From Hwanghaeella sp. (GTDB taxonomy: Bacteria; Pseudomonadota; Alphaproteobacteria; UBA8366; Aestuariispiraceae): a DNA stretch of 64,000 nt. Under the pieces are notes generated by a model. The model saw only the letters and a program-made list of their open reading frames with translations. It was not told where the DNA came from and made no database searches. Both the position numbers and the translations under genes were made by a program. Positions 8,515 to 49,583 of this stretch are shown one piece after another. Within the stretch, counting starts at the first letter, position 1; each line of letters starts with the position of its first letter. Where the stretch lies: assembly GCF_965227365.1 (NCBI RefSeq), contig NZ_OZ245754.1, forward strand, positions 2,462,777 through 2,526,776, in the 5' to 3' direction.

Positions 8515-9792
8515 TCAGGCCAATCGGGCACCGTCCGGCCGGTAGAAACGCAGCCACAATGCGGCCAGGAAGACGACCAGTACCGGTCCGATGATCGCCA
8601 TGTTCACCGCGTCCCAGCCCACCAGATTCTGCAACATGCCGGCCGACAGGCTCGCCACGCTGACCGATCCGAAGACAATGAAATCATTGAGAGCCTGAAC
8701 CTTGTTCCGCTCCGTCGCCGTATAGGTGCTGGTCAGCAGCGTCGTCCCGCCGATGAACATGAAGTTCCAGCCAACGCCGAGCAGCAAAAGGCCGAGCCAG
8801 AACTCCTCGATATCGACCCCGGACAGGTTGACCGCAACACAGGCGATGTTCAGCACGGTGCCGAGCTTGATGATGTTCAGCACACCAAATCGACGAATCA
8901 GCGAGCCGGTGAAGAAACTGGGCGCGAACATGCCCAGTGCGTGCCATTGGATGACAAAGGCGGTGTCGGCCACGTCAAAGCCGCAGACCTGCATGGCAAG
9001 CGGCGTCGCGGTCATCACGAAGGACATCACCGCATAACCCAGCATGGCTGCGATCACGGCGATGACGAAAACCGGCTGCTTTACGATCTGGCCCATCGGG
9101 CGGCCGGTATCGCGACGCTCTTCGGGCGCCAAATTCGGAATTCGGATGAACTGAAGCACCACGACCGTGATCAGGCAGAGAACGATCACGACGGCATAAG
9201 ACCCCGCGAACATGACCGGCGCCATGAGGTCCTGGCTCTCCCTGGCCAGGGTCGGGCCAACCACGGCGGCGACAACGCCGCCGGCCATGACCAGCGATAT
9301 GGCGCGCGGGCGGAAGGCCTCACTCGCGGTTTCGGATGCCGCGAAGCGGTAATACTGCCAGAACGCATTGTGGAAGCCGATGATCAAACCGCAGACGGTG
9401 AACATCCAGAAACTGCCTTCCAGGATAGCGTAGCAGGCGAGAGCCGCCCCGCCGGCACCGATGAATTGTCCGATGGTGAAACCGACCCGGCGGCCAACCC
9501 GGCGCATGAACATCGATGCCGGGATCGTCGCCATCATGGTGCCGATGAATTGCATGCTGAGCGGCAGTGTCGCTAAACTGGCTTCCGGCAAAGTGCCGAG
9601 GAACGGCAGGGTCACCGTCGCGTTCGGATCCGCCAGCATTTTGCCCGTCAGCGCGGAGATGACCATGTTCAGGCTGGTCCCGGACATGCTCAACGCGAGG
9701 CAAACCGCCAATAGAATGACGTTGCGTTTGGTCGGGTCCGACCCAGAGAAGGCCGAAAGCTTGCCGGACAGGATAGACATGAGGCGTTTCAC
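8515..9792 (-). CDS. MFS transporter
   Basis: 425 aa with about 12 predicted TM helices and an MFS loop motif (MRRVGRRVGF). Confidence 0.75.
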   Translation of the reverse strand: MKRLMSILSGKLSAFSGSDPTKRNVILLAVCLALSMSGTSLNMVISALTGKMLADPNATVTLPFLGTLPEASLATLPLSMQFIGTMMATIPASMFMRRVGRRVGFTIGQFIGAGGAALACYAILEGSFWMFTVCGLIIGFHNAFWQYYRFAASETASEAFRPRAISLVMAGGVVAAVVGPTLARESQDLMAPVMFAGSYAVVIVLCLITVVVLQFIRIPNLAPEERRDTGRPMGQIVKQPVFVIAVIAAMLGYAVMSFVMTATPLAMQVCGFDVADTAFVIQWHALGMFAPSFFTGSLIRRFGVLNIIKLGTVLNIACVAVNLSGVDIEEFWLGLLLLGVGWNFMFIGGTTLLTSTYTATERNKVQALNDFIVFGSVSVASLSAGMLQNLVGWDAVNMAIIGPVLVVFLAALWLRFYRPDGARLA

Positions 9793-9811
9793 TTAAGCAG
9801 TTTTGAACAGG

Positions 9812-10264
9812 TCAGCTTCCGCGTTTTTCGTAGATGCCCTCGATCAGGACATCGACCAGGTTCTCGGACCCGATATTTTTTTCCGCTATTTTTCGGAGGC
9901 GACGCTTGATTGCCACAATACTGATCGGCTGGTCGAGAGGGGCTGCCGAAAAATAGTCGTGAAGCGATAGGTAGGTTTCTTCCTTGATCCGGGGCATGAC
10001 CTGATTGGCCAATTCCTTGCCGTCCTGGTCCATGACCTGAAGCGTGATCTTCAACAGGATATACTTCTTAACCGTTCCCTGCCGAATGACGGGAATGGTC
10101 AAGGATTCGAGCTGGACCAGTTCCGGATCGGGCGGTGGCGGCGGCGGTTCGGGCTCGGCGGGTTCCTCGGTCGCGTCTTTCAGGACAAACCAATAGTAGG
10201 CCGCGCCCCCGGCGGTACCGAAAAGCAGCAATACGGGAATTATGATCAGTAGTAGCTTTTTCAT
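9812..10264 (-). CDS. FliL-like (flagellar basal-body-associated family) membrane-anchored protein
   Basis: 150 aa. N-terminal TM helix, Pro-rich linker, then a FliL-like pattern (LESLTIPVI....KYILLKITLQV). Confidence 0.5.
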   Translation of the reverse strand: MKKLLLIIIPVLLLFGTAGGAAYYWFVLKDATEEPAEPEPPPPPPDPELVQLESLTIPVIRQGTVKKYILLKITLQVMDQDGKELANQVMPRIKEETYLSLHDYFSAAPLDQPISIVAIKRRLRKIAEKNIGSENLVDVLIEGIYEKRGS

Positions 10265-10321
10265 ATGCGCGCGCCGTCAGGCGAGACGCTTAGCATACCC
10301 GGCCCGCACCGGAAACCACCG

Positions 10322-10978
10322 TCACCGGGAATACCCGCTTCCCGGCGATTCACCTTCCTGCTTGCTCCAATCGATATAAACGGCCTGCCTGTTGCCGTGG
10401 CCTCTTTTCGGCAGGAACAATGCCCCCGCAATGACAAAGGCAATGCCGCCGAGTTCCATGACCCAGTTCATCCTGACATCGCCGATCTCATATCCGATGA
10501 TGATGTCGAAATGGTGGAACCCTACCGCGCGCACCGCGACGAATGTCATGACCAGAAAAACGCCCAGCAAGGCGAGCCAATTGGGCCGTAGGATTTTACG
10601 GAAGACCACAGCCAGGATGACAAATCCGCAAGCGGTCGCGCCCATCATCCCGTAAATGAATTGCCTTTGGAATCCGCGTCTCTCGTCGTACCAGCCGTTG
10701 ATCTTGGCGTGGCAGCGCCCGATTGCCGTGAACAGGGACTGCAAGTCCAACTGCTTGTTCACCGCCAGGAACAGGAACAGGACCGCCAGCGCGATCCAGA
10801 AGAAACGCTGCATGGCCACGGTTTCATCCGAATAGATGTGCTTCGCCTTCATTGCCGCGCGCACCGCCAGAAGGGAGGCCAAGGCATAGGCGGCGACCGT
10901 CACCCAGCCCATGATATGCGGATCGCCGATCTTCGGCGACCAGCTCGCGAAGGTGCAGGCTTGGATTTCCTCTAACAT
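10322..10978 (-). CDS. hypothetical integral membrane protein
   Basis: 218 aa with about 6 hydrophobic helices. No family recognised. Confidence 0.5.
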   Translation of the reverse strand: MLEEIQACTFASWSPKIGDPHIMGWVTVAAYALASLLAVRAAMKAKHIYSDETVAMQRFFWIALAVLFLFLAVNKQLDLQSLFTAIGRCHAKINGWYDERRGFQRQFIYGMMGATACGFVILAVVFRKILRPNWLALLGVFLVMTFVAVRAVGFHHFDIIIGYEIGDVRMNWVMELGGIAFVIAGALFLPKRGHGNRQAVYIDWSKQEGESPGSGYSR

Positions 10979-11096
10979 GAACCGAACTCGTCTTTGCCCG
11001 GCCAGGACCAGGACTTCCCCCAGGAGACCAATTCAGGCCCATCCGTGGGTATCATGGTGCGCATTTCTTCGGTCAAATGCAATCCGCGAGCGTCGA

Positions 11097-34104: not shown

Positions 34105-35160
34105 CTAACTCGCCTGCTTTTCCAGGTGGAAACGGCCGAACTGATTGGTCTCCAGCGATCCGTCAGGCAGATCGACATCCTTCAGATATTTGAAGGTCTG
34201 AATGGTCTGCGCCACCAGGTGGTCGCCGGCGGAAATCGGACCGTATCTGGTTTCCGTGCCCGCCTCGATCAATTCCGGTATCGGCGAGACCACGGTCTCG
34301 TAGTCTGTCGCGAAGAACAGCGGAAAGGAATAGCGTTCCTCGTTCACCCGATCGACACGGTGCGAATTGGCCACATAGAGACCGTTCGACCAGTTCTCCA
34401 GCATATCGCCGATATTGATGACGAAGGTGCCTTCCACCGGCGGCGCGTCGACCCATTCGCCGTCATTGCGCAGAACCTGCAGCCCCGGCGCGGTCGGCAG
34501 CAGGATGGTGAAAAGTTCGTAATCCGTGTGGGCGCCTATCCCCATCCGTTTCAGCCGCGCCTGTTCCTCCGCGCTCACCACCTTGTCGGTTTCCCAATAA
34601 TGGATCAGGCGCAACTGGCTGGTCGGCTTTGAAACATGCTTGACGAAAATGTCTTCGGGTAGTCCCAGTCCAAGGGCGAAACCGCGCAGCAAATCCTTGC
34701 CCAGATCCAAAGCCGCCGCGTAATAGCGGTCGACGGCCGCCTTGTGATCGGCCACTTCGTCCGGCCAGACATTCGGGCCGAGCATCCGATTTCCGGCGAG
34801 ATAATCGGGGTCGTCCGCCGGCAGGTCCAGCGCGGTGTCGAAGGCTTCCTTCAAATCGCCGCCGCCTTCGCCGTAGAATTCCTCACCCTGGGGAACATAA
34901 CCGCGATGGTTGGTCGACTTGCCGATATAATAGTCCATCTTGGTTTCGAGCGGCAGAGCGAACAGCGCCTTGGCTGCCTGCTTCAGCCCTTCCACCGTCT
35001 CTTCCGGGATTCCGTGGCCGGCGATATAGACAAAGCCGACATCGCGGGCGGCGCGGTCAAGATCCTTCACCGCCGCCATGCGCTTTTCCGGGTCAGACGA
35101 CCGAAGGCCGGAAACATCCACCAAGGGGATCTCGGAAAAGTTCGTCCGCGCTTTGGCCAT
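34105..35160 (-). CDS. 2-oxoglutarate/Fe(II)-dependent oxygenase, isopenicillin-N-synthase/EFE family (paralogue A)
   Basis: 351 aa. Facial triad GIGAHTDYE ... SHRV, and RYSFPLF (2OG-binding Arg-x-Ser). Confidence 0.85.
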   Translation of the reverse strand: MAKARTNFSEIPLVDVSGLRSSDPEKRMAAVKDLDRAARDVGFVYIAGHGIPEETVEGLKQAAKALFALPLETKMDYYIGKSTNHRGYVPQGEEFYGEGGGDLKEAFDTALDLPADDPDYLAGNRMLGPNVWPDEVADHKAAVDRYYAAALDLGKDLLRGFALGLGLPEDIFVKHVSKPTSQLRLIHYWETDKVVSAEEQARLKRMGIGAHTDYELFTILLPTAPGLQVLRNDGEWVDAPPVEGTFVINIGDMLENWSNGLYVANSHRVDRVNEERYSFPLFFATDYETVVSPIPELIEAGTETRYGPISAGDHLVAQTIQTFKYLKDVDLPDGSLETNQFGRFHLEKQAS

Positions 35161-35313
35161 AACCGCTTCCTATCGCAATACCGATATTGATACCTGGACA
35201 AATATTGTGCAGCGCAATAGATCGCTTGTCCAATGTTCACTGCTCCCACATTATAGGCCGAGCGGAAAAATTTTGCAGCGCACCACTGCCATTCCAATAG
35301 AAGGCAAACCCAC

Positions 35314-36081
35314 GTGATCTCACTTACCGGCAAAACCGCGTTGATCACCGGTGGCAGCCGCGGCATCGGTTACGGTATCGCGGAACGTTTTCTGGAGGCG
35401 GGCGCGCGCCTACATATCCTTGCCGAAACCGAGGCTGCCTTGGAAGCCGCTGACGCATTGGGCACGCAAGTGACCGGGCATGTCTGCGACATCACGGACG
35501 GGGACGCGGTCGCGACGCTGGTCGCCTCCCTCGGACCGATCGACATCCTGGTCAATAATGCCGGCCTGGAACGGATCACCGCGCTGACCGATATGTTCGA
35601 CCCGGCACCGGTCGTCGAAGAGACCTTCCGGCGGATCATGGATATCAACGTGACCGGCACGTTCCTGTTGACCCGCACTGTCCTGCCGCTGATCCCCGAT
35701 GGCGGAACGATCATCAACACCGCCTCAATCTGGGGGAAGTCGGGCCCTGCCTGGTATTCCGCCTATTCCGCCTCGAAACATGCCGTCATCGGATTGACCC
35801 GCGTCTGGGCCCGTGAACTCGGGCAGCGGCGGATCAGGGTCAATGCCGTTTGCCCTGGCTGGGTGGAAACGGAACCGGCGATGCTGTCACTGCAACGGCT
35901 TTCGGACGCAACTAGCCGGGACCCGGACGACCTGTTGAACGAGATCGTCTCGGCGCAGGACCTGCCGGGTTTGATGAAGCCCGCCGATGTCAGCGGATTA
36001 TACGTTTTCCTGGCCAGCGACCTCGCCGCCAGCATCACGGGACAGGCAATCAATGCGGATCGCGGCGAAGTTCACGGATAG
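35314..36081 (+). CDS. SDR family oxidoreductase
   Basis: GTG start. TGGSRGIG, NNAG, YSASK. Confidence 0.86.
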   Translation: MISLTGKTALITGGSRGIGYGIAERFLEAGARLHILAETEAALEAADALGTQVTGHVCDITDGDAVATLVASLGPIDILVNNAGLERITALTDMFDPAPVVEETFRRIMDINVTGTFLLTRTVLPLIPDGGTIINTASIWGKSGPAWYSAYSASKHAVIGLTRVWARELGQRRIRVNAVCPGWVETEPAMLSLQRLSDATSRDPDDLLNEIVSAQDLPGLMKPADVSGLYVFLASDLAASITGQAINADRGEVHG

Positions 36082-36100
36082 GCGCCCGGCGCCCCGCCGG

Positions 36101-36763
36101 TCAGTCCGGCTTCAACGCGTGGGCGACGTCTGCGCAGGTCGCGATCCAGCCGAACAGATGGCCTTCGCTTTGAATTATCGCCATGGTCGCGTCATGCAAG
36201 GCACGGTCGAACGTCGCGCAACCGTCGGCCAGTGTCAGGCAGCGATATCCTCTGTCCACGGCTTCCCGCAACGTCGACTGGACGCAGCATTGGGTCGTGA
36301 CGCCGCCGATGATCAAATGGGTGATCCCGCGCGCCCGCAGGCGCAAATCCAGATCGGTCGCGTAAAAGGAACCGAAGCCCGGCTTGTCGATGATCCATTC
36401 ACCGGGTTCCGGTTGCAATTCGTCGATGAAGTCATGTCCGTATTCCCCGCGGACGAGATAACGCCCCAACGCCCCCGGCGCACCGATTTCAGCGCCCGCG
36501 TCCCGGCTGCGTTGCCGCTTCGCCTCGTTGAGGTCCGACAGGTCGGGCACATGCCCTTCCCGTGTATGGGCGACGGTCAATCCGCTGGCGCGCGCCGCCT
36601 GCAGCAGGTCACGCAGGGCCGGCACAATCGCCTGAACCGGACCGCTCTCGCCGTTCGCCGCTTCGTTCTGGATGAAGTCCCTTTGCATATCGATCAGAAG
36701 AAGCGCCGTCTTATCGGGCGGGAAGGAATATGTCCGATCAGCAAAGGCGGGAACGGTGATCAT
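36101..36763 (-). CDS. isochorismatase-family cysteine hydrolase
   Basis: ATG 36763 with GGAG SD 8 nt upstream (TTG 36790 is an alternative). Motifs ALLLIDMQRDF, a Lys region, and GVTTQCCVQST (catalytic Cys). Confidence 0.8.
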   Translation of the reverse strand: MITVPAFADRTYSFPPDKTALLLIDMQRDFIQNEAANGESGPVQAIVPALRDLLQAARASGLTVAHTREGHVPDLSDLNEAKRQRSRDAGAEIGAPGALGRYLVRGEYGHDFIDELQPEPGEWIIDKPGFGSFYATDLDLRLRARGITHLIIGGVTTQCCVQSTLREAVDRGYRCLTLADGCATFDRALHDATMAIIQSEGHLFGWIATCADVAHALKPD

Positions 36764-37472
36764 GCCTGATACTCCAGCGTCGAAAATCAATTGGGAAACC
36801 GGACCGGCACCGATCCGCTACAGAGGATTGTGGCGCCGCCGCCTGCTGGTGGAAGAGGACGGCAGCCGCGATGCGGATACCATAGTCTGGTGGCTGCAGA
36901 GCCGACAACTCTTTGCCGACATCCGGCTGTCCCCCGATCGCAGCGCCGTTGCCGGCGCGACCTGTTTCGGCGATCTAGATCACGCCGGACTGCAGACGCT
37001 TGTTCTACAGGAAGGGTTTGCCGGTTTTCTGGAATGGACCGACACGGCCTGTGCCTGGCGTCGAAAGGTGGACTATCGCCCCCTACCCGGTCCGCCCGAT
37101 GAAGGCTGGATGGAGGCAAAAGGAAACGATCTGATGATCGAGCGCGGCATCCATCGCGGCTACCTGGAAGAATGGGTGCAAACCGCCGCCACCGATGCCG
37201 TCATGAACGACTGGATCTGGCATGATGGCTGGAACGGCCCGACACTTTTGCGGATCGGCAGCACCTTCATGTTCGCCGAGGATCGGCGCGGCAGCCCACC
37301 GCACGCAGAGAATTTCGAAACGAATGTCCTGGCCGCATTAGGGGACGAGGCTGCCCTCGCCGCGCTTCTCGATTGTGAAATCTCCTTCGGGAAGATCGGC
37401 GCGGACGGAACCTGGTCGATCACGATGTCCACCATTCCCTGGCGCGAGGGCGAAACGGTCACCGCCCTCTGA
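36762..37472 (+). CDS. hypothetical Trp-rich protein
   Basis: 236 aa with gene-like GC3 codon usage. No recognised family. Confidence 0.5.
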   Translation: MPDTPASKINWETGPAPIRYRGLWRRRLLVEEDGSRDADTIVWWLQSRQLFADIRLSPDRSAVAGATCFGDLDHAGLQTLVLQEGFAGFLEWTDTACAWRRKVDYRPLPGPPDEGWMEAKGNDLMIERGIHRGYLEEWVQTAATDAVMNDWIWHDGWNGPTLLRIGSTFMFAEDRRGSPPHAENFETNVLAALGDEAALAALLDCEISFGKIGADGTWSITMSTIPWREGETVTAL

Positions 37473-37537
37473 GCAATATTTTTTGCACTGCAACACTTCC
37501 CTTTTTCTGTCCCGCAGGTATACTTTCTATTCAAAGA

Positions 37538-37645
37538 TTGCGGCTAGGGTTCCGATCGTCATCACGGCGGTGTCTGGACCGAGAGCTGACGCCTGGTCCA
37601 TCAACAGACCGGGTCCACGGCGGGATAAAAGCCCGGGAGGTCATG
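37538..37645 (+). promoter_or_regulatory. guanidine-I riboswitch (ykkC-yxkD class) aptamer
   Basis: Conserved blocks are in the right order and spacing: CTAGGGTTCCG (37544-54), TGGACCGAGAG (37575-85), CACGGCGGGATAAAAGCCCGGGAGG (37616-40). Lies in the 300-nt leader of the DUF1989/carboxylase operon. Confidence 0.85.
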
Positions 37646-37773
37646 GTGGTGCTGCGGTGCGCCCAACCTCCGAGACGTTTGTCTCCCGGATATCAGGACC
37701 GCTCCGTTCAGCATCAGAGCTTCAATTGCCGTCCGCCCCTGGAAAGGGCAGGCCGGCGGTGACGAGGGAGGCG

Positions 37774-38613
37774 ATGATGACGGCCGAAACAGCGAGCATT
37801 GACGAGTTGAAAGCCCGTTATGCCGCATTGAAAGAAACAGGGCAGAAGGAAGGCGAGTTCGAGGCCAGATTGGCCGGCGCCCCTGCAGCGCCCGTGACGA
37901 TCCCGGAAAACAGGATATCGAAACAGGAAACGGTCCCCGGCGGCTGGTATTGGACCACGACCGTGAAGCGCGGGCAGACGCTGCGCATCGTGAATTCGCA
38001 CGCCACGCCCGGTATCGCCCTGCAGATCTGGAACCAACACGACCCGTCCGAACGGTTCAATTCCGCCGATACGATCAAGGTTCAGTGGACGGCGCGGATC
38101 GGCAAGGGCCGTGTGCTGTTGTCCGATATGGGCCGGGTCTTGATGGCGATTACCGAAGACACCTGTGGTTATCATGACTGCGTCGCCGGACACTCGACGG
38201 CAATCACCAACGAAAAGAGTTATGGTTCGGGCACCCTAAGGAACAGCCCTGTCCCGGTGCGCAACAGCCGCGATAACTTCCTGATCGCCGCCGCGAAACT
38301 GGGGCTCGGCAAGCGGGACGTCCATCAATCCTTTTGCGCCTTCGCCCCCGTCGAGACGGGCGAAGAAGGCGCCCTGACCTGGAAGGACGGCGCCCTGAAA
38401 GCCGGCGATTTCATCGATCTGCGCGCGGAAATGGATTGCATCCTCTGCCTGTCGAATTGTCCCCATCCACTGGCACCGGGCGGGAGTTACGATCCTCAAC
38501 CCGTTGCCGTGACCATCTGGGATGCGGGCCCGGTCGCCGAGAATGATCTGTGCCGGACCGGAACCGCGGAAGCGGTCCGCGCCTATGAGAATACGGACCC
38601 GCTTTTCGACTGA
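37774..38613 (+). CDS. urea-carboxylase-associated DUF1989 protein 1 (carboxyguanidine deiminase subunit-like)
   Basis: ATG 37774 after GAGGGAG SD. Motif RGQTLRIVN...ERFNSADT...DTCGYHDCVAGHS. The upstream part of the ORF-track frame covers the riboswitch and is not coding. Confidence 0.8.
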   Translation: MMTAETASIDELKARYAALKETGQKEGEFEARLAGAPAAPVTIPENRISKQETVPGGWYWTTTVKRGQTLRIVNSHATPGIALQIWNQHDPSERFNSADTIKVQWTARIGKGRVLLSDMGRVLMAITEDTCGYHDCVAGHSTAITNEKSYGSGTLRNSPVPVRNSRDNFLIAAAKLGLGKRDVHQSFCAFAPVETGEEGALTWKDGALKAGDFIDLRAEMDCILCLSNCPHPLAPGGSYDPQPVAVTIWDAGPVAENDLCRTGTAEAVRAYENTDPLFD

Positions 38614-38681
38614 GTCCCTTGGATATGCCGATGCGCGGCGGGCGCGGAACGACCCGCATGACCGCCGCCGGGAGATGAAAC

Positions 38682-39323
38682 ATGACCACATTGAGCAACC
38701 TGCAACCGGACACCGCCAAACAACGCCTTAAAGTGCCGGCAAACGCCCCCTTCTCCGCCATCGTGAAGAAGGGGCAGACCATTCGCATCGTCGACAGTTT
38801 CGGCCAACAGGCCGTCGACACCCTATTCTACAACGCCGCGGATACGGACGAGCGCTATTCCGCGCATGACACGGTCGCCGCCCAAGGCGCCGCCTATATC
38901 ACCACCGGATCCAAGGTGCTTTCCAACGAAGGCAACCTGATGTTGACGGTAACCGCGGATACGGTCGGCTATCACGACACATCCGCCGGCGCGTGTTCGG
39001 TTGAATCGAACACGGTTCGCTTCGGCCACCACACGCGCTTCATGCATGCCTGTCGCGAGAACTTCGTTCTGGAAGCCGCGAAATACGGCATGGACAAGCG
39101 AGACATCGTTCCCAACATCAACTTTTTCATGAACGTCCCGATCGAGCCGGACGGCAATCTCGCCATCGTCGACGGCTTGTCGGAACCCGGCAACTATGTG
39201 GAGTTGAAGGCCGAGATGGATGTGATCTGCCTCATCTCGAACTGTCCGCAGGTGAACAATCCCTGCAACGGGTTCAATCCAACGCCGATCGAAATCCTGA
39301 TCTGGGATCGAGAACCGGCATGA
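38682..39323 (+). CDS. urea-carboxylase-associated DUF1989 protein 2 (carboxyguanidine deiminase subunit-like)
   Basis: 213 aa. Motif KGQTIRIVDSFGQQAVD...ERYSAHDT...DTVGYHDTSAGACS. 4-bp overlap with the carboxylase gene. Confidence 0.8.
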   Translation: MTTLSNLQPDTAKQRLKVPANAPFSAIVKKGQTIRIVDSFGQQAVDTLFYNAADTDERYSAHDTVAAQGAAYITTGSKVLSNEGNLMLTVTADTVGYHDTSAGACSVESNTVRFGHHTRFMHACRENFVLEAAKYGMDKRDIVPNINFFMNVPIEPDGNLAIVDGLSEPGNYVELKAEMDVICLISNCPQVNNPCNGFNPTPIEILIWDREPA

Positions 39324-42300
39324 TCAACAAAGTCCTCATCGCCAACCGGGGAGAGATCGCCGTCCGGATCATCCGGACCTTGCGGGAAATGGGTCTCCCC
39401 TCGGTGGCTGTCTATTCCGACGCGGATCGCCACGCCGCGCATGTGCGTCTTGCCGATGAAGCGGTTCGGATCGGTCCCGCGCCCGTCACGGACAGTTATC
39501 TAAACCGTGATGCGATCCTAGCCGCCTGCAAACAGACCGGGGCGGACGCGGTTCACCCGGGTTATGGGTTCCTGTCGGAGAACCCGGATTTCGCCGAAAG
39601 CCTGGAAGCGGAAGGGATCCGGTTCATCGGGCCGACGCCGGACCAGATGCGCATTTTCGGTCTGAAGCACAGCGCCCGCGAAGCGGCCGAGAACAGCGGT
39701 GTGCCGCTGCTGCCCGGCAGCGGATTGGTCGATACGCTGGAAGAAGCGAAGGCGGAGGCAGAACGGATCGGCTATCCCGTCATGCTGAAAAGCACCGCGG
39801 GCGGCGGCGGTATCGGCCTGCAATTATGCGAGAGGGCAGAGGATCTGCCGGAACTGTTCGAAACCGTCAGACGGCTCGCGAGGTCCAACTTTTCCGATCC
39901 GGGCATCTTTATCGAAAAATACATCGCCCATGCCCGTCATGTGGAAGTGCAGATCTTCGGCGACGGCAAGGGCCACGTCGTGTCTCTCGGCGAACGTGAC
40001 TGCTCCCTGCAGCGCCGGAACCAGAAGGTCGTCGAGGAAACGCCCGCCCCGAACCTGCCGCAAGCCACCAGGACGGCCCTGATCGATGCCGCTCTATCCC
40101 TCGGGCGGTCCGTCGATTACCGGTCAGCCGGAACGGTGGAATTCATCTATGACGGCAAGGCGGACGAATTCTACTTTCTGGAGGTGAACACCCGCCTGCA
40201 GGTCGAACATCCGGTCACCGAATTGGTCACCGGCGAGGACCTGGTATCCTGGATGGTGAATCTGGCGGCGGACAAGATGGACCTCGCCGCCTATCCCGAC
40301 GTACTGCCGGTGCGCGGCGCGGCCATGGAGGTGCGCGTCTATGCGGAAGACCCGGGCAAGGGATTTCAACCTTCCGCCGGACCGCTCACGCATGTCTCTT
40401 TTCCCGAAGGCGTGCGCGTAGACAGCTGGATAGAGACCGGGTCCGACGTTTCCATGTATTACGACCCGATGCTGGCCAAGGTCATCGTTCATGCGGACAC
40501 CCGGGACGCGGCGGCGGATGCCCTTTCCGACGCGCTGCGGAAATCGGCCATCTACGGCATTGAAACAAACCTGGCCTATCTCAGGGCGATTTCGGAAAGC
40601 GCCATGTTCCGTGCCGGCCATGTCTTCACGAAGGCGCTCGACCGGTTCGACTTCACGCCCAATACCGTCGACGTTCTTGCCCCCGGAACCCATTCGGCAC
40701 TTCAGGATTGGCCGGGACGGGTCGGTTTTTGGGATGTCGGTGTCCCTCCGTCGGGCCCGATGGACGCACTGAATTTCCGGCTGGCCAACGCCTTGCTCGG
40801 CAACGCGCCCGACGCCGCCGGACTGGAAATGACAATGACCGGGCCGACATTGCGGTTCAACCGCGATGCCGTCATCGTGCTGACCGGTGCCGACTTTCAT
40901 GCGAAGCTCGACGGCGACCCGGTCGATTGTTACCGACCAATCTCTATCCATCGCGGTCAAACGCTCAGTCTTGGCAAGGCCGGGGACGGCGGCGTTCGCG
41001 CCTATCTGGCGGTCGCGGGCGGGTTCGATGCGCCGCTCTATCTGGGCAGCCGTGCGACCTTCGATCTGGGCGGCTTCGGCGGACACGCCACCGGGAACTT
41101 GAAAAGCGGCGATGTCCTGCGTCTGACGGATAAGGCGGATGCCCCGGTTCTTCGCGGCGCCCTGCCCGGATCTCATTGGCCGCACTTGCCCGACGATTGG
41201 GAAATCGGCGTGCTTTACGGTCCACATGGCGCGCCGGACTTTTTCACGGATTCGGATATCGAAATCCTGTTCTCGACGCCCTACGAAGTCCATTTCAACA
41301 GCGCCCGCACAGGTGTCCGCCTGATCGGCCCGAAACCCGCATGGGCAAGGCCCGATGGCGGTGAAGCCGGTCTGCATCCATCGAACATCCACGACAATGC
41401 CTATGCCGTCGGGGCCATAGACTTCACCGGGGACATGCCGATCATTCTCGGCCCCGACGGTCCCAGCCTGGGTGGGTTCACCTGTCCCGCCGTCGTCGCC
41501 AAGGCCGAGCTTTGGAAGATGGGACAGTTGCGGCCGGGTGACCGTGTGCGTTTCAAGCGGCTGGCCCTGGCGGAAGCCGAAGCGCTCGAGGAACAGCAGG
41601 AAGCGTTCCTGAACGCCTTGTCCTTCGGCCGGGATGTCGAGCAGGCAGCCCCGCCCTCGCCCAGCATTCTGAAAGCATCCGGGCTGCGGGAGGACGCGGT
41701 CGTCGCCCGCGACGAAACGAATGGTATCGAGATTTGCTACCGCCGGACGGGTGAAGACTTCCTGCTCGTCGAATTCGGCGAACAGGAACTGGACCTGGAT
41801 CTCCGCGTAAAGGCCCATTTGTTGATGCAACGCATCCAGGCCGAAGAAATGGACACCGTCATCGACCTGACGCCGGGTATACGGTCGCTGCAAGTCCATT
41901 TCGACAACCGCCGGGTCAAGCCGAGCGATATGCTCGCCAAACTGCGCGAGTTCCAGAGCGACCTGCCGGCGCTGGACGATGTGATACTGCCGAGCCGGGT
42001 GGTCCATATGCCTTTGTCCTGGGATGACGAAAGCACGCGGATCGCGACGAAACGCTACCAGGACCTGGTCAGGCCCGATGCGCCCTGGTGCCCCTGGAAC
42101 ATCGAATTCATTCGTCGCATCAACGGGCTGGACAGTGTTGACGACGTCAAGAAGGTCGTTTTCGACGCAGATTACATGGTTCTGGGTTTGGGGGATGTCT
42201 ATCTCGGCGCGCCCGTCGCTACACCTGTCGATCCCCGCCATCGCTTGGTCACCACAAAATACAATCCGGCCCGCACCTGGACGCCACAAAACGCGGTCGG

Positions 42301-42946
42301 GATCGGCGGCGCCTATATGTGCGTTTATGGCATGGAAGGGCCTGGTGGGTATCAATTCGTCGGGCGTACCGTTCAGGTCTGGAACACCCATCGCCAAACC
42401 GGGAATTTCAAAGAAGACAAACCCTGGCTTCTGCGTTTCTTCGACCGCATCAAGTTTTACCCCGTCACCAACGAAGAACTCACCGAAATGCGTGACGGCT
42501 TCCTGCATGGAGAAGCGGAACTGAAGATCGAGGACGGCACATTCGACCTGGCCGAGTATCACCGGTTCCGGGCACAAAATGCGACGTCGATCGAGACCTT
42601 CCGAAGCAGGCGTCAAGCCGCCTTCGACGAAGAACGCGCGCGCTGGGAAGCGCAAGGGATCGCGGCCATTGTCGATGAAACCGATCTGGCGCCGGAACCG
42701 GTCGGCGTTGATCTGGCCGACGGCGCCATGCTGATCGAAGCACCGATGAACGGGTCGGTTTGGAAAGTCTCTGTCGAAATCGGTGATCGCATTTCCGCCG
42801 GCGACAAGGTCGCCGTCCTGGAAGCCATGAAGACAGAAATCGCTGTGGATGCAACGCAGGACGGGCACATCACCGATATCCTGTGCAAGCCGGGACAGAT
42901 CGTCCGGCCGGGTGACCCGCTGCTGGTCATTCAAACGGAGGCTTGA
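39320..42946 (+). CDS. uca: biotin-dependent urea/guanidine carboxylase
   Basis: 1208 aa. N-terminal biotin carboxylase (KVLIANRGEIAVRIIRT, MLKSTAGGGGIGL), central KipA/KipI-like carboxyltransferase domains, and a C-terminal biotinyl motif VLEAMKTEI. Confidence 0.92.
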   Translation: MINKVLIANRGEIAVRIIRTLREMGLPSVAVYSDADRHAAHVRLADEAVRIGPAPVTDSYLNRDAILAACKQTGADAVHPGYGFLSENPDFAESLEAEGIRFIGPTPDQMRIFGLKHSAREAAENSGVPLLPGSGLVDTLEEAKAEAERIGYPVMLKSTAGGGGIGLQLCERAEDLPELFETVRRLARSNFSDPGIFIEKYIAHARHVEVQIFGDGKGHVVSLGERDCSLQRRNQKVVEETPAPNLPQATRTALIDAALSLGRSVDYRSAGTVEFIYDGKADEFYFLEVNTRLQVEHPVTELVTGEDLVSWMVNLAADKMDLAAYPDVLPVRGAAMEVRVYAEDPGKGFQPSAGPLTHVSFPEGVRVDSWIETGSDVSMYYDPMLAKVIVHADTRDAAADALSDALRKSAIYGIETNLAYLRAISESAMFRAGHVFTKALDRFDFTPNTVDVLAPGTHSALQDWPGRVGFWDVGVPPSGPMDALNFRLANALLGNAPDAAGLEMTMTGPTLRFNRDAVIVLTGADFHAKLDGDPVDCYRPISIHRGQTLSLGKAGDGGVRAYLAVAGGFDAPLYLGSRATFDLGGFGGHATGNLKSGDVLRLTDKADAPVLRGALPGSHWPHLPDDWEIGVLYGPHGAPDFFTDSDIEILFSTPYEVHFNSARTGVRLIGPKPAWARPDGGEAGLHPSNIHDNAYAVGAIDFTGDMPIILGPDGPSLGGFTCPAVVAKAELWKMGQLRPGDRVRFKRLALAEAEALEEQQEAFLNALSFGRDVEQAAPPSPSILKASGLREDAVVARDETNGIEICYRRTGEDFLLVEFGEQELDLDLRVKAHLLMQRIQAEEMDTVIDLTPGIRSLQVHFDNRRVKPSDMLAKLREFQSDLPALDDVILPSRVVHMPLSWDDESTRIATKRYQDLVRPDAPWCPWNIEFIRRINGLDSVDDVKKVVFDADYMVLGLGDVYLGAPVATPVDPRHRLVTTKYNPARTWTPQNAVGIGGAYMCVYGMEGPGGYQFVGRTVQVWNTHRQTGNFKEDKPWLLRFFDRIKFYPVTNEELTEMRDGFLHGEAELKIEDGTFDLAEYHRFRAQNATSIETFRSRRQAAFDEERARWEAQGIAAIVDETDLAPEPVGVDLADGAMLIEAPMNGSVWKVSVEIGDRISAGDKVAVLEAMKTEIAVDATQDGHITDILCKPGQIVRPGDPLLVIQTEA

Positions 42947-42949
42947 GGC

Positions 42950-43207
42950 ATGATGCCTGACGCACCGAAAACGACAATGTTCGAACTGAGCCTGGACAGT
43001 TTGGCCGTGGCGATTGTCGTCGAGGCCTTTGGCAGTTTTGCCGAGCTGATCCCACGGCAGCTGGGTATCGGCACAGAGGCCCTGGCAAACGGACTGCAGG
43101 TCAAAGGTTTCATCTGCGAACCGACTGGTATCGCAGCCGCAACCGAGATCACGCAATATGGCCGATGGCGATCCTATTGCGCGGAAACTGCCGCCTGGAG
43201 TGCATAA
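42950..43207 (+). CDS. 85-aa ORF matching only the C-terminal domain of allophanate hydrolase (remnant or stand-alone domain)
   Basis: FGSFAELIPRQLGIGTEALANGLQVKGFICEP...EITQYGRWRSY resembles the AtzF/DUR1,2 AH C-terminus. GGAGG SD present. Occupies the slot where full-length AH normally follows the carboxylase. No amidase-signature domain is present. Confidence 0.5.
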   Translation: MMPDAPKTTMFELSLDSLAVAIVVEAFGSFAELIPRQLGIGTEALANGLQVKGFICEPTGIAAATEITQYGRWRSYCAETAAWSA

Positions 43208-43273
43208 AAGCACAAGACCAAAACCAATTGGCACGGAGAAATAGCGTTTACAGAACCGAACAGGAGCGCCGCC

Positions 43274-44350
43274 ATGGAACTGCCGAAGTATGATGCTAAC
43301 GCCGCCATCCGCCCGACCGATGTCCGCAAGGGCACCGGCTATGCGGCAGAGCGCATCGATTTCGATAGCATCCCCATCGTCGATATCGGTGCGGCGATCA
43401 ACGGAGATCCGGACGGCAAGCAAAGGGCCGCGGCGGCGTTGAGAGAGGCCGCCGCGAATGTCGGTTTCTTCTACATCAAGAACCACGGCGTCCCCGACGA
43501 CGTCATCAGCAAGGCGCAAGCGGCCGCGGATCGTTTCTACGGACTGCCAATAGCGGTGAAATCGCAATACGACGTTGCCAAGGCGAAACGCCACCGGGGC
43601 TATGTTCCGGTCGGCGGTCTCAGCGCCGATCCGACCACTTCCGACCTGCAGGAAGGATACGAGGTCGGCCTGGAAGTGCCTGAGGACGATCCCGACTATC
43701 TATCCGGCAATCCACTGTTCGCGCCGAACAACTGGCCGGCGGAACTACCGGAATTCCGGGCCGACATCTATGCCTATTTCGAAGAGATGATGAAACTCGG
43801 CCGCACGATGTACCGGCTGTTCGCGCTGGCGGTCGGCATGCCGGAAGACTATTTCGACGACAAGGTGACCAAGCCCTGCGCGCAGCTGCGTGTGATGTAC
43901 TACCCGGAGACGGACCCGAAAGACAGCGCGGTCGGCATCGGCGCCCATACGGACTACGAAAGCTTCACTGTGCTCTACCAGTCGGAATCCGGACTGCAGG
44001 TACAGAACCGCGCCGGCGCCTGGATCGAAGCCCCGCCGATCCCCGGTACCTTCATCGTCAACATCGCCGACATGATGATGCGATGGACCAACGAACTTTT
44101 CGTGTCCACACCGCACCGCGTGATCAATACGTCCGGCAGGAAACGCTTCTCCCTGGCGCTGTTCTTTGCGGCTGATTACGACACGGTGGTGGAGTGCCTG
44201 CCTAGTTGCACGAATGCTGACAATCCGCCGAAATATCCGCCGACGCATTTCGGATATTGGATCGAAAACATGCATTCCTATTCCTACGCTTATCGCTGGG
44301 ACGAACGCGGCAAACTGCCGAACCCGGAACTCACGGACACGAGAGGCTGA
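43274..44350 (+). CDS. 2-oxoglutarate/Fe(II)-dependent oxygenase, isopenicillin-N-synthase/EFE family (paralogue B)
   Basis: 358 aa. GIGAHTDYE ... PHRV and RFSLALF. By eye roughly 40% identical to the 34105-35160 product. Confidence 0.85.
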   Translation: MELPKYDANAAIRPTDVRKGTGYAAERIDFDSIPIVDIGAAINGDPDGKQRAAAALREAAANVGFFYIKNHGVPDDVISKAQAAADRFYGLPIAVKSQYDVAKAKRHRGYVPVGGLSADPTTSDLQEGYEVGLEVPEDDPDYLSGNPLFAPNNWPAELPEFRADIYAYFEEMMKLGRTMYRLFALAVGMPEDYFDDKVTKPCAQLRVMYYPETDPKDSAVGIGAHTDYESFTVLYQSESGLQVQNRAGAWIEAPPIPGTFIVNIADMMMRWTNELFVSTPHRVINTSGRKRFSLALFFAADYDTVVECLPSCTNADNPPKYPPTHFGYWIENMHSYSYAYRWDERGKLPNPELTDTRG

Positions 44351-44378
44351 GCCCCGCCCCATTTGAAAGGAACGAGCT

Positions 44379-45281
44379 ATGATCCAGAATCCCATTCCCT
44401 GGCCGAACGGCGCGAAATGCGCCTGCGCGATCACCTTCGATATCGATGCCGACAGCTTGATCCATGTGGCACGGCCCGGCGACTCCCATAACCGCCTATA
44501 CCCGATCAGCATGGGGAAATACGGTCCCGACGTCGCCATTCCACGAATTCTGGAGACCTACAAGCGGCTTGGCATCAAGCAGAGCTTCTTCGTCCCCGCC
44601 TGGTGCATCGACCAATACGCGCCGGTGATGGAGAAGATCCTGGAAGGCGGCCACGAGATCGGCCATCACGGGCTTATTCATGAAGACCCGATCGAGACGA
44701 TGGGCCCGCGTCAGCGCGAAGCCTTCGAAAAGGCGCTTTCAATCCATCGGCGCGTGTGCGGCGGCAAGCCCAAGGGTTATCGCGCCCCGGTCTATAACAT
44801 TACGCCGCAAGTCGTGGATCTGTTGATCGAACATGGCTTCGCCTACGACTCTTCCCTGATGGGGGATGATATCCCCTATCTACTGGAGAAGGACGGCAAC
44901 AGCATCGCGGAAATCCCGGTGCATTGGGGCTGCGACGACTGGCCCCCCTTCGCGCATTACGAGGAAATCGGTTACATGATGCATGTACAGCCGCCATCGC
45001 TCGGCTATCAGGGTTTCTGGGAGGAATTCGAGGCCCAGTATGAAGCCGGCGGTTTCTTCATGATGATAGTACATCCCTTCCTGACCGGCCGCCTCGCGCG
45101 GTGGCGGGTTGTCGAAAAGTGGTTGGAAAACACCTTGGAGACGAAGGATGTCTGGTTCGCCAGACTGGACGAAATCGTCGACTACGTCCGCAGCCTGGAA
45201 AAGGCCGGCACCTATACCCCGCGCAAGGATCTGCTTCCCTACTATCCCGAACAGGTAAACCGGGCCGAAGCAGCGGAATAA
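44379..45281 (+). CDS. polysaccharide deacetylase family protein (PuuE-allantoinase-like size and architecture)
   Basis: 300 aa. NodB-like motifs (TFDIDADS, GHEIGHHG, YRAP). Confidence 0.78.
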   Translation: MIQNPIPWPNGAKCACAITFDIDADSLIHVARPGDSHNRLYPISMGKYGPDVAIPRILETYKRLGIKQSFFVPAWCIDQYAPVMEKILEGGHEIGHHGLIHEDPIETMGPRQREAFEKALSIHRRVCGGKPKGYRAPVYNITPQVVDLLIEHGFAYDSSLMGDDIPYLLEKDGNSIAEIPVHWGCDDWPPFAHYEEIGYMMHVQPPSLGYQGFWEEFEAQYEAGGFFMMIVHPFLTGRLARWRVVEKWLENTLETKDVWFARLDEIVDYVRSLEKAGTYTPRKDLLPYYPEQVNRAEAAE

Positions 45282-45298
45282 CTCCGATCAACCGGAAA

Positions 45299-45327
45299 GA
45301 CCCGCCGCGGATTTCTCCGGGCGGGTC
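45299..45327. terminator. GC-rich hairpin between convergent genes
   Basis: GACCCGCC-loop-GGCGGGTC. The minus-strand reading is followed by TCTTTCC. Confidence 0.45.
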
Positions 45328-45360
45328 CCATCCTGTCAAACCGCTTTGGGAACCGTGCCG

Positions 45361-45912
45361 TTACGCGGCGCGCCCGGCCGGTTCGACTTCCGGGAAGTCG
45401 ATCGGAGTGCCGAACACTTCGTTAACATAGTTGGTCAGCGTGTTCAGCGCGACATGCACAACGATTTCCACCAGTTCCGCATCCGAGAAACCGGCGTCGC
45501 GAACCGCCTGCACGTCGGTAGCGGTGACATCGGCCCGGGAAATCGCGACTTTGCGCGCGAAGGCCACCGCGGCTTCCGCTTTCGGGTCTGAAGAACGGCC
45601 CCGGCGGTTCGCCTCAATTTCAATCGCATCCAGCTTCAGCATACCGGCAATCGCCGTATGGGCAGCGTTGCAGTAGTTGCAGCCATTCACATTGGCGATG
45701 GCAAGCGCGATGCGTTCGCGGGTCCGGGCATCCAGCGCGCCCTTGCCGAGAGCCTCGCTCAAGGAGAGCGTTCCTTCCAACGCCGCCGGACTGTTGGCGA
45801 TAAGCTTGTAGAGGTTCGGTGCGAAACCGATCTTCTTTTCCACTGCTTGCAGCAGGGGTTGGGAAGCCGCAGGGGCGCTGGCGACGTCAGCGGGCAAATT
45901 TACGTTCAACAT
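45361..45912 (-). CDS. carboxymuconolactone decarboxylase / AhpD-like family protein
   Basis: 183 aa with AhpD-type CxxC (NGCNYCNAAH). Confidence 0.83.
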   Translation of the reverse strand: MLNVNLPADVASAPAASQPLLQAVEKKIGFAPNLYKLIANSPAALEGTLSLSEALGKGALDARTRERIALAIANVNGCNYCNAAHTAIAGMLKLDAIEIEANRRGRSSDPKAEAAVAFARKVAISRADVTATDVQAVRDAGFSDAELVEIVVHVALNTLTNYVNEVFGTPIDFPEVEPAGRAA

Positions 45913-46082
45913 TTCTCATTCCTTTCGTGGTTTCTGTAACAGAGGTCCAGGTTGATATTCAGGTTAGGCTTTCTCGCGGGGTTATTCGGCCGGTCAGCCG
46001 CCTTTCGGGTCCCGCATTGACTGACCGTTGTACCGGTGCACCGGGTGACCTTTTTCGGACTCGGTCCTCGGAGCGCCGAAAT

Positions 46083-46454
46083 TCACTTTTTTGTCCCAAG
46101 GCTCGGCCGTAATTCGAACTGGGCCGACAATTCACGTTCCCCTGACAAGGCCCGTATGCAGACATGACGCGGTGTCGCTTTCGACCCGCCGGACAATTGC
46201 TCGATCGCCATCACCATCACGGACCGTTCTGTCGGCTTACAAACGCCACCGCCGGTTTGCGGTCTTCCAATGTCGGCGGCAGTGACCTCGGTTCGGATTC
46301 TATCGATCGGGACCGGGGCCGTTTGAACGACCCTCACTTCCTCAACCTCCGCGCCAAACCAGTCCGCATCCCATAACTGCTCCACCGCCGACCCGGCGGC
46401 GAAGTCCAACGCCAAGGTCAACGCCGTCAACGCTCCTTTAGACATCAGGTTCAT
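46083..46454 (-). CDS. hypothetical small protein
   Basis: ATG 46454 is preceded by a strong SD (GGAGAGGG). 123 aa, no family recognised. Coding status uncertain. Confidence 0.35.
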   Translation of the reverse strand: MNLMSKGALTALTLALDFAAGSAVEQLWDADWFGAEVEEVRVVQTAPVPIDRIRTEVTAADIGRPQTGGGVCKPTERSVMVMAIEQLSGGSKATPRHVCIRALSGERELSAQFELRPSLGTKK

Positions 46455-46520
46455 GTCCCTCTCCTCTCTCAGACCCGCCTCGAACTCCCCCGTCCAAAGG
46501 CTCCAGCGTTTCGTTTCTGC

Positions 46521-46578
46521 AAACATTAACTGATCGGTTAATCTCATATGCTAAACATTAACCGTTCTGTCAATGTTT
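46521..46578. promoter_or_regulatory. candidate TetR operator cluster
   Basis: AAACATTAAC direct repeat (46521-30, 46553-62). Palindromes ATTAACtGATCgGTTAAT (46525-42) and AAACATT-N12-AATGTTT (46553-78). Confidence 0.4.
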
Positions 46579-46698
46579 GTGGTTCGGAAAACGACTGACG
46601 TTTTCGTGATCACAAGCCTTTTCCTTGTTTTCTTGAAACTTTCTGCCATATGTTGACCCGGAAACGGGAAAACCGTTCGGTAATTGTGAAGAGCGAAA

Positions 46699-47268
46699 AT
46701 GTCTGAATCTAAAAGAGATCAACTCATCCAGCGCGCCTTATCGGTCTTCTATAAGGACGGGTTTCATGCGGTTGGCATGGACAAGATCGCGAAAGAGACG
46801 GGTGTTTCAAAAACCGCGATCTATAAACACTTCAGGACCAAGGACGACCTGATCCTGGCGACGCTGCGCCTGCGGGACGAACAGTTTCGAAATTGGATTA
46901 TTCGCCGGATCGAAGAGATTGCGGAGGATCCCGCGGAGAGGATCCTGGCGTCTTTCGATGCATTGAAGGAATGGTTCCTGGAACCGACCTATCTGGGATG
47001 CATGTTCATCAAGGCATCGTCGGAGTTTCAGGAGCGCGACAGTTCCATCCACGCCATCTGCGCGGAGCATAAACGGATCCTGGAACGCTATCTGATTGAC
47101 CTTGCGGAAAAGGCGGGCGCACGGAACCCGGACCAACTGGGCGCGCAGATCCTATTGCTGCAGGAAGGCGCCATCGTGGTGGCGGCCCTAATGAATCCCG
47201 AAAAGGCCGTAAGCGACGCCAAGGCGGCTGCCGCCACCCTGTTGGAGCAGGCCCTCAGCGCCGCTTAA
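46699..47268 (+). CDS. TetR/AcrR family transcriptional regulator
   Basis: 189 aa with N-terminal HTH (GMDKIAKETGVSKTAIYKHF). Confidence 0.88.
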   Translation: MSESKRDQLIQRALSVFYKDGFHAVGMDKIAKETGVSKTAIYKHFRTKDDLILATLRLRDEQFRNWIIRRIEEIAEDPAERILASFDALKEWFLEPTYLGCMFIKASSEFQERDSSIHAICAEHKRILERYLIDLAEKAGARNPDQLGAQILLLQEGAIVVAALMNPEKAVSDAKAAAATLLEQALSAA

Positions 47269-47291
47269 AAAGGAGGCGGACCCTGCCGCCC

Positions 47292-49583
47292 CTATTCGAT
47301 GATAGGCGGATCGTAGGCCCTGCTTTCGGGAATATCGCCGCGCGCGGCCTCGACATCCACAAGGCAACTATGCGCCGTCGGCCCTTGGGCCATGCTGGAC
47401 GTCCCCTTGTCCAGGGTCAGGACATTCGGGTTGCCGTGCCGGCAGGTATTTCCGTCCGGTTCATACCATGCACCGGTGGCAATCTGAATCACGCCGGTCC
47501 GTACATCATCGCTGATCCTGAGCCCCGCGTAACACGCACCGCGCCCATTGAATATCCGCACGATCTGGCCTTCTGAAAGGCCACGCGCAGCGGCATCGTC
47601 AGGATGCATCGTCACAGGTTCGCGCCCGTCAATCCGGTCCGCCCGGCTGACGGAGCCGTGGTCCAACTGGCTGTGAAGTTTGGTTCGCGGCTGATTTGAA
47701 ATCATGTGCAGCGGATAGGATCCGACATTGCCGAGCCATTCGCCCGGCTCAAGCCAGACCGGGTGTCCCGGGCAATCCGCATCACCGAAGCCGGCCACGG
47801 TTTCGGAATAGATTTCGATCTTTCCACTTGGCGTCTTCAAGGGATTCGCGTCGGGGTCATCCCGAAACGCGTCGAACAGAACCGCCGGTTTCTCCGGCGG
47901 CGGAACCTTCATCCAACCCTTTTGCTGCATCGTGTCCCAATCGGGCAGTTCGAAAGCCGAGCGGGAGGCGGATTGGCGTGAAATTTCGTACATCCACTTC
48001 TGCCATTCCTCAGGGCTGCGCCCTTCCGTAAAGGCGTCCTCCAGCCCGAGTTCGGCGGCAATGCCGCGAAAGATGTCGTGGTCGCTCTTCGCCTGACCGA
48101 TCGGCTCGATCGCCTTGTCCATCACGACCTGATAGGCATCACGCGGATTGAGGGCGAGGTCCGACCGCTCAAGCGTCGTGCTGCAGGGAAGAACGATATC
48201 CGCATGACGGGCAAGGCTGTTCCAGCACCACTCGTTGACAATGACGGTTTCCGGCCGCGCCCAGGCTTTCCGCAGGCGGTTCAGGTCCTGATGGTGGTGA
48301 AACGGATTGCCGCCGGCCCACCAGACGAGACGGACGTCGGGATAGGTATGGTCCTTGCCGTTGTACCGGAAGCTGCCGCCCGGGTTTTCCAGCATCTCCG
48401 AAACGCGCGCGACAGGAATGAATTTGCGCACGGAATTCTTGCCCTGGGGGAAGGACGCGAAGTGCATTTTCCGCAAACTCTGCCCCACCTTGTTGGTGGC
48501 GGAGTATCCGAAACCGATGCCGGTGCCCGGCAGGCCGATCTGCCCCAGCATGGCGGCCAGGTTGATCGCCGCCCAATAGGGTTGCTCCCCATGGTCCTGA
48601 CGGGTCAGCGACCAGGAGATCGAGATCATCGTCCGCTGCGACGCCATGCGCCTCGCCAATGCGCGGATCTCATCGGCAGGCAGTTCGCAGATTTCCGACG
48701 CCCATTCCGGCGTTTTGGCAACACCGTCTTCCTCACCCGCGAGATAGGCGGCATAACGGTCGAACCCGACCGTATATCTGTCCAGAAATGCCCGGTCGTG
48801 CAGCCCTTCCGACAACAGCACCTGCGACAGGGCAATCATCAGGGCGGCGTCGGTGGACGGACGCGGCGACAACCACTCGGCCCCGACCGAGTCCAGCAGA
48901 TCCGATCTCAAGGGGGAAACATTGACGAATTTCACGCCCGCCTCGTGCGCGGCAAGCAGGCCCTGTTTCTGAATGTGGCTGCCCGTCCCGCCCTGGGAAA
49001 TCTGTCCGTTCTTCAGCGGAACGCCGCCGAAGGCGACGAAAAGCTCGCAGGCTTCCGCAATCGAATCCCAGCCCGTGCATTCGGCTAACAGTTCGTAGAA
49101 TGAGCCCAAAACATGCGGCACGATGACCTCGGCCGCCGCATAGCTGTAGGTATTCACCGAACTGGTGAACCCGCCCAGGCAGTTCAGGAATCGTTTCAAC
49201 TGTCCTTGCGCGTGATGGAATCGGCCGGCGCTGGCCCAGCCATAAGAGCCGGCATAGATCGACGCATTGCCGAACTCGGTTTTGACGCGCTTCAACTCGG
49301 CGGCGACCAACCGGTTGGCTTCGGCCCAAGTCACCTCTACGAAAACGTCCTCGCCGCGTTTCTCGCCGGCGGTGCCGGGGCCGCCTTCCAACCAGCTCTT
49401 GCGCACCATTGGCGCCTTGATCCGGGTCGGCCCGTCGAGGACATCGACGATTCCATGTCCGATGGGCGACGGATCCGGATCCTCCGCGAAGTCCTTCATG
49501 CCGGTCACACGTCCGTTTTCGACGGAGACATGATAGGTTCCCCAATGAGTGGCGGTGATCAGATCACGGTTGCGGATATCCAT
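47292..49583 (-). CDS. molybdopterin (bis-MGD) oxidoreductase, biotin-sulfoxide/TMAO reductase (BisC) type
   Basis: Collinear with E. coli BisC by eye (ATHWG..., SYGWASAGRFHHAQ, PVARVSEMLENPGG, GHPVWLEPGEW). ATG 49583 has a GAAGGGA SD. GTG 49634 is an alternative start. Confidence 0.9.
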   Translation of the reverse strand: MDIRNRDLITATHWGTYHVSVENGRVTGMKDFAEDPDPSPIGHGIVDVLDGPTRIKAPMVRKSWLEGGPGTAGEKRGEDVFVEVTWAEANRLVAAELKRVKTEFGNASIYAGSYGWASAGRFHHAQGQLKRFLNCLGGFTSSVNTYSYAAAEVIVPHVLGSFYELLAECTGWDSIAEACELFVAFGGVPLKNGQISQGGTGSHIQKQGLLAAHEAGVKFVNVSPLRSDLLDSVGAEWLSPRPSTDAALMIALSQVLLSEGLHDRAFLDRYTVGFDRYAAYLAGEEDGVAKTPEWASEICELPADEIRALARRMASQRTMISISWSLTRQDHGEQPYWAAINLAAMLGQIGLPGTGIGFGYSATNKVGQSLRKMHFASFPQGKNSVRKFIPVARVSEMLENPGGSFRYNGKDHTYPDVRLVWWAGGNPFHHHQDLNRLRKAWARPETVIVNEWCWNSLARHADIVLPCSTTLERSDLALNPRDAYQVVMDKAIEPIGQAKSDHDIFRGIAAELGLEDAFTEGRSPEEWQKWMYEISRQSASRSAFELPDWDTMQQKGWMKVPPPEKPAVLFDAFRDDPDANPLKTPSGKIEIYSETVAGFGDADCPGHPVWLEPGEWLGNVGSYPLHMISNQPRTKLHSQLDHGSVSRADRIDGREPVTMHPDDAAARGLSEGQIVRIFNGRGACYAGLRISDDVRTGVIQIATGAWYEPDGNTCRHGNPNVLTLDKGTSSMAQGPTAHSCLVDVEAARGDIPESRAYDPPIIE

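Follow-up and report, generated by a model that had tools for sequence, protein, structure and literature searches.

A short reading frame behind the guanidine carboxylase of a Hwanghaeella strain is very probably the decaying remnant of an in-frame deleted allophanate hydrolase gene

Bacterial Gca operons, which are controlled by a guanidine-I riboswitch, encode an ABC importer, CgdAB, Gca and an allophanate hydrolase (AH); guanidine is first carboxylated, CgdAB deiminates the carboxyguanidine to allophanate and ammonia, and AH frees the other two ammonia (PMC12186494, PMC12508155). In the stretch of Hwanghaeella sp. DNA analyzed here (64 kb, hereafter the window), the place behind the carboxylase is taken by a reading frame of only 85 codons, which raises the question of whether this frame encodes a small working part of the pathway or is what is left of a lost gene. 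The original prediction, made from the sequence alone, noted the similarity of the frame to the C-terminal domain of AH and left two readings side by side, namely an internal deletion of the AH gene or a stand-alone C-domain that works with a different amidase. We found that the frame is very probably a non-functional, decaying in-frame deletion relic of the atzF-type AH gene of the operon. We take it as a case of ordinary gene decay rather than as a new small enzyme.

The operon to which the frame belongs was identified by profile searches (Table 1). The full-length RF00442 aptamer lies ahead of a cgdA-like gene, which indicates that the apparent "urea carboxylase" operon is a guanidine carboxylase operon, and RF00442, TIGR03425, TIGR03424 and TIGR02712 were all matched above their cut-offs. 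The start of the cgdA-like gene was taken as the ATG at 37774, after GAGGGAGG. The window thus resembles the described Gca operon in its riboswitch, in its cgdA and cgdB genes (both DUF1989), in its TIGR02712 carboxylase and in a TIGR03427 ABC substrate-binding protein encoded nearby, but it differs in that the canonical AH step is missing from the operon of this lineage.

Table 1. Positions of the operon genes, of the signals and of the parts of the AH remnant in the window
Feature	Position	Strand	Basis
Guanidine-I riboswitch aptamer, operon head	37533..37641	+	Rfam RF00442, 86.4 bits (gathering 63), E=4.7e-14, positions 1-107 of 107
cgdA-like gene (UAAP1 / DUF1989, carboxyguanidine deiminase subunit)	37774..38613	+	TIGR03425, 273 bits (cut-off 206); PF09347
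cgdB-like gene (UAAP2 / DUF1989)	38682..39323	+	TIGR03424, 333 bits (cut-off 285); PF09347, 227 bits
Biotin-dependent urea/guanidine carboxylase, 1208 aa, intact	39320..42946	+	TIGR02712, 1845.6 bits (cut-off 1303.85)
Shine-Dalgarno sequence GGAGG, inherited from the AH gene	42937-42941	+	read from the sequence; 8 nt before the remnant ATG
delta-atzF remnant, 85 codons, ATG start	42950..43207	+	translation, profile and blast matches
5' segment, homologous to AH codons 1-19	42950..43005	+	blastn: window 42800-43005 = L005 9081-9286
Deletion junction zone, codons V-A-I-V-V-E	43006..43025	+	between the two blastn segments
3' segment, about the last 57 AH codons, second half of AH_C	43026..43195	+	blastn, tblastn, Pfam
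TGG (43196-43198) at the AH stop position of the relatives, then read-through W-S-A to TAA (43205-43207)	43196..43207	+	nucleotide alignment with L005, L004 and L001
2OG/Fe(II) dioxygenase, next gene of the operon	43274..44350	+	PF14226 and PF03171; syntenic in AH-bearing relatives
Polysaccharide-deacetylase-fold protein, last gene of the cluster	44379..45281	+	PF01522, 45.9 bits

The ATG of the remnant lies 3 nt past the carboxylase stop codon (TGA, 42944-42946), and the original prediction was right in placing an 85-aa ORF with a good Shine-Dalgarno sequence directly behind the carboxylase, the distance between the carboxylase and the gene that starts at 43274 being 327 bp. The proposed similarity to the AH C-terminal domain stood only for a part of that domain. 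The match to the Pfam model AH_C (PF21986) was significant (E=6.3e-15, 55.7 bits, cut-off 27), but it was limited to remnant residues 22-78 and to profile positions 67-123 of 123, that is, to the C-terminal half of the domain and the last ~57 residues of AH. A complete AH_C domain is absent from the remnant, whereas the intact orthologue matches positions 1-122 of the 123. The same end of the protein was matched in TIGR02713 (E=2.5e-16, 59.3 bits, positions 506-563 of 563) and in the Granulibacter AH chain 4gyr_A of the PDB (E=1.8e-15, residues 565-620 of 621). The whole-protein cut-offs for AH were far from being reached (59.3 vs 511 bits for TIGR02713, 58.2 vs 487 bits for NF006043), and a Pfam search of the 85-aa remnant gave no match to the amidase-signature domain PF01425. 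At the other end, the first ~19 residues of the remnant (MMPDAPKTTMFELSLDSLA) are the original N-terminus of AH, for which H. grinnelliae has MTVSVSKTEMLDLSLDSLAS. The remnant therefore joins the two ends of an AH protein, the C-terminal end being encoded by codons ~26-82.

An intact version of the gene was found in two close relatives, H. grinnelliae (L005) and a MAG (L004), which were retrieved when the C-terminal part of the carboxylase was used to scan the genomes of species representatives (86-87% protein identity). Both loci are colinear with the window across ~17 kb at ~78% nucleotide identity, with one break: L005 1-9286 aligns with window 33745-43005 and L005 10876-17223 with window 43026-49322, while L005 9287-10875 is without counterpart in the window. 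In both relatives a 605-aa AH (9231..11048) lies at this site, flanked by the carboxylase and the same 2OG dioxygenase, and it follows the carboxylase at the same spacing of 3 nt; within it, aa 39-441 match Amidase and aa 477-600 match AH_C. A full AH was present directly downstream of the carboxylase in 76 of 80 related loci, which indicates that the full-length state is ancestral and bears out the expectation that an AH of ~600 aa normally follows the carboxylase. On the right side of the break, blastn aligned window 43026-43398 with L005 10876-11250, and tblastn aligned AH aa 545-605 with window 43013-43195 at 66% identity. The change of offset across the break amounts to a net loss of 1569 bp (523 codons), which leaves the frame intact. 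A syntenic AH in two relatives, the in-frame loss and the retention of both gene ends directly support the first of the two readings, an internal deletion. Alignment to the full-length gene placed the breakpoint within 43006-43025, where the left and right homologies fade. At the ~22% divergence from the nearest intact gene, no convincing microhomology was found there that would point to a mechanism, the GTGGC match to the right being out of register by 1 nt.

The fate of the frame after the deletion could be followed in a sister strain (L001, a Logan assembly of another sample, SRR34438647), which is 97.2% identical at the nucleotide level to window 41446-45638 and also has the 85-codon ORF, joined at the same point, so that every difference between the window and L001 arose after the deletion. 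In this comparison, the remnant had a dN/dS of 0.95 (N:S 12:4), based on 16 differences in 258 nt of a single strain pair, as opposed to 0.08 for the last 500 codons of the carboxylase (N:S 14:49), 0.07 for the 2OG dioxygenase (3:13) and 0.02 for the deacetylase-like gene (1:13). The N:S ratio of the remnant equals the neutral expectation and differs from that of the pooled flanks (18:75; Fisher p=2.3e-5). The amino acid sequence points the same way: across the 57 C-terminal residues that survive, identity is 93% between the two intact orthologues but drops to 68% between the window and either of them, whereas in the three flanking genes the window, L005 and L004 are equidistant (83-92%). Furthermore, when 119 full-length AHs were used as the reference for conservation, columns that are 92-100% conserved were found to be broken in the remnant, with P37Q and D47N in both the window and L001, G72R confined to the window, and T68M and G71N confined to L001. 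The stop codon of AH, TAG in both relatives, is TGG in the window and in L001, which adds 3 codons. The frame is nevertheless open and free of frameshifts in both strains and has kept its good Shine-Dalgarno sequence; however, 16 random substitutions left the remnant without a stop in 58% of simulations, and the open frame thus carries little weight.

Taken together, these data are best accounted for by the following course of events. The ancestral order would have been guanidine-I riboswitch, cgdA, cgdB, carboxylase, 605-aa AH, 2OG dioxygenase and deacetylase-like gene. The loss, in one deletion or several, would have removed AH residues ~22-544, and with them the linker, all of the amidase-signature catalytic domain and the C-domain up to about position 66 of 123. 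As the loss would have been in frame by chance, the old start codon and ribosome-binding site would now read 19 N-terminal codons into the last ~57. Given the mid-operon site and the kept translation signals, the 85-aa peptide is probably still transcribed and translated. With the catalytic domain absent, no allophanate-hydrolyzing activity is predicted for it, and as half a domain that lacks the catalytic residues it would have drifted neutrally since the deletion. The rest of the operon is still under selection, with allophanate presumably handled by an AH elsewhere or by another route. The comparison with known enzymes is consistent with this course: the remnant descends from an orthologue of AtzF, the bacterial AH (TIGR02713) for which structures are available from Granulibacter bethesdensis (4GYR/4GYS) and Kluyveromyces lactis (4ISS), and it shares with that family the place in the operon behind the carboxylase and the start region, but it differs in scoring only 59 bits where the cut-off is 511 and in evolving neutrally.

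One alternative accepts that the peptide is useless and holds that its frame has been kept for the sake of downstream expression, an in-frame deletion having been selected because it avoids polarity or preserves coupling. The deletion is indeed exactly in frame, strong constraint acts on the dioxygenase and deacetylase-like genes that follow, and no promoter-like or terminator-like site was found in 42947-43273, so that these genes probably need transcription from upstream. However, a random deletion falls in frame one third of the time, and the open frame is unsurprising in view of the simulation. The stop codon of the remnant lies 66 nt before the next start, which argues against tight coupling, and the change of TAG to TGG shifted the stop without apparent consequence. 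We therefore consider selection for the frame itself distinctly improbable.

The second reading of the original prediction, a functional stand-alone AH C-domain that completes allophanate breakdown with another amidase as its partner, either the deacetylase-like or the isochorismatase-family protein, would explain the significant AH_C similarity, the good Shine-Dalgarno sequence and the frame that is open in two strains. It also has some plausibility from the enzyme itself, since the N and C domains of AH catalyze sequential reactions (PMC5770610), and from the existence of separate AH_C ORFs of ~140 aa. One of these, P0003 (140 aa), is likewise a short ORF with AH_C as its sole Pfam match, but its domain is complete (positions 1-122 of 123, 180 bits) and an amidase-domain ORF ends 27 nt ahead of it, i.e. 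it is part of a split AH, and it was therefore rejected as a precedent for a free-standing C-domain. The remnant, on the other hand, is without an adjacent amidase, retains 57 of the 123 AH_C positions and has this half domain fused to the AH N-terminus. Its near-neutral dN/dS, the near-invariant residues lost independently in each strain and the loss of the AH stop codon are likewise at odds with a maintained function. The proposed partners fared no better: the deacetylase-like, dioxygenase and isochorismatase genes were all rejected as replacement amidases, as the relatives have each of them next to an AH that is still intact, and the window shows no gene gain. A conserved small protein family was also not apparent from database searches. 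A phmmer search of 1.84 billion representatives gave 691 significant matches to the remnant, and among the 150 of these that were listed, only the ORF of L001 aligned over residues 1-85, the remaining ones being confined to residues ~14-83. Neither the exact junction DNA pattern nor a degenerate junction-peptide pattern had any match in JGI metagenome contigs (0 each). Together, these findings make a stand-alone C-domain highly improbable.

The chance that faulty assembly or sequencing, such as the collapse or mis-joining of an intact AH, produced the short ORF is close to nil, since the same junction and 85-codon ORF recur in a strain that was assembled independently (Logan) and that differs from the window at 2.8% of positions, and an identical 85-aa protein is present in RefSeq.

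The evidence thus says that the frame is best treated as a pseudogene remnant, contrary to its RefSeq entry (Hwanghaeella sp.), in which the identical protein is named "allophanate hydrolase-related protein" and carries no pseudogene label. The main value of this result is a correction of annotation, and no operon-encoded AH should be counted when the pathway of this strain is reconstructed. It also makes a small biological point, which is that selection on the carboxylase has outlasted the loss of the AH encoded in cis.

How, then, is the allophanate step completed after the loss? The carboxylase has been under purifying selection since AH was lost, as seen in its dN/dS of 0.08 against L001 over the last 500 codons, and this constraint implies that AH is either supplied in trans or dispensable for the benefit that the operon provides. 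We found no other AH in the 64-kb window, where a tblastn search with the H. grinnelliae AH matched the remnant only, and Pfam searches of the window revealed neither an amidase-signature gene nor a urease. Among the best 120 AH homologues listed (at least 52% identity), none was on the 5,246,406-bp contig that carries the remnant; a more distant paralogue is possible. Most likely, we infer, another locus supplies AH; otherwise the pathway would run without it. A lineage that lacks AH throughout its genome and in which the riboswitch-controlled carboxylase and CgdAB are still under selection is unlikely. If this were true, the pathway would be productive without a dedicated AH: either only the ammonia released by CgdAB would be harvested, or the allophanate would decarboxylate spontaneously to urea, or else a hydrolase other than AH would dispose of it, for example the neighboring BiuH-like or deacetylase-fold enzyme.

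The same data also allowed us to make a number of observations on the related loci. One of these (L009) has the carboxylase without AH within 8 kb on either side, and in another (L044) AH lies upstream of the carboxylase, unlike the norm. In two metagenome contigs (L002 2-1449 and L003 56-478), the amidase domain and the full AH_C domain of AH are encoded by two ORFs 27 nt apart, the latter of 140 aa, which could be either a natural split or a frameshift; this split AH adjoins genes for an HpcH/HpaI aldolase, TauE and formamidase (FmdA_AmdA). The MAG contig of L004 (CAYGKA010000001.1) is labelled "uncultured Flavobacteriaceae", yet it is colinear with, and ~78% identical at the nucleotide level to, a locus of Hwanghaeella, a member of the Alphaproteobacteria, suggesting that its taxonomic label or its binning is probably wrong. 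Between the window and L001, dS is uneven over window 41447-45281, being 0.15 for the carboxylase (3' part) and 0.05-0.07 for the genes behind it, and there may be a recombination boundary near the remnant.

The genes around the carboxylase are also of interest. The 2OG dioxygenase and the PF01522 protein extend the guanidine operon as a pair that is syntenic in H. grinnelliae and in the MAG, and they may free guanidine from a substituted guanidine. There is a precedent for an extra 2OG dioxygenase in MgdH of the guanidine operon of Vreelandella boliviensis, and the pair resembles the MgdH/MgdL extension of that operon, in which MgdL is only a hypothetical protein (PMC12508155). The deacetylase-like protein itself matched the PuuE and XrtA deacetylase models weakly, far under their cut-offs. 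On the opposite strand beside the operon, the isochorismatase-family hydrolase gene at 36101-36790 (-) had biuret amidohydrolase BiuH as its best NCBIfam match (225 bits, below the cut-off of 370) and is predicted to encode a BiuH-like cysteine hydrolase. Between this gene and the riboswitch lies a 266-aa ORF (36672-37472, +) without a significant family match (HRI1 was weak, E=0.009), the 5' end of which overlaps the start of the opposite-strand gene. Farther upstream, a 940-aa ORF (10911-13733, +) has no Pfam match and is overlapped by minus-strand ORFs of 385 aa and 416 aa; it is probably spurious, owing to high GC, with the true genes on the other strand. Finally, the regions 15286-16605 (-) and 29471-35160 appear to form a guanidino-compound island, which contains an arginase-family gene (TIGR01229, 285 bits), a creatininase-family gene, two SDRs, the TIGR03427 "urea-carboxylase-associated" ABC substrate-binding protein with a permease and an ATPase, and a second 2OG dioxygenase (34105-35160, -).
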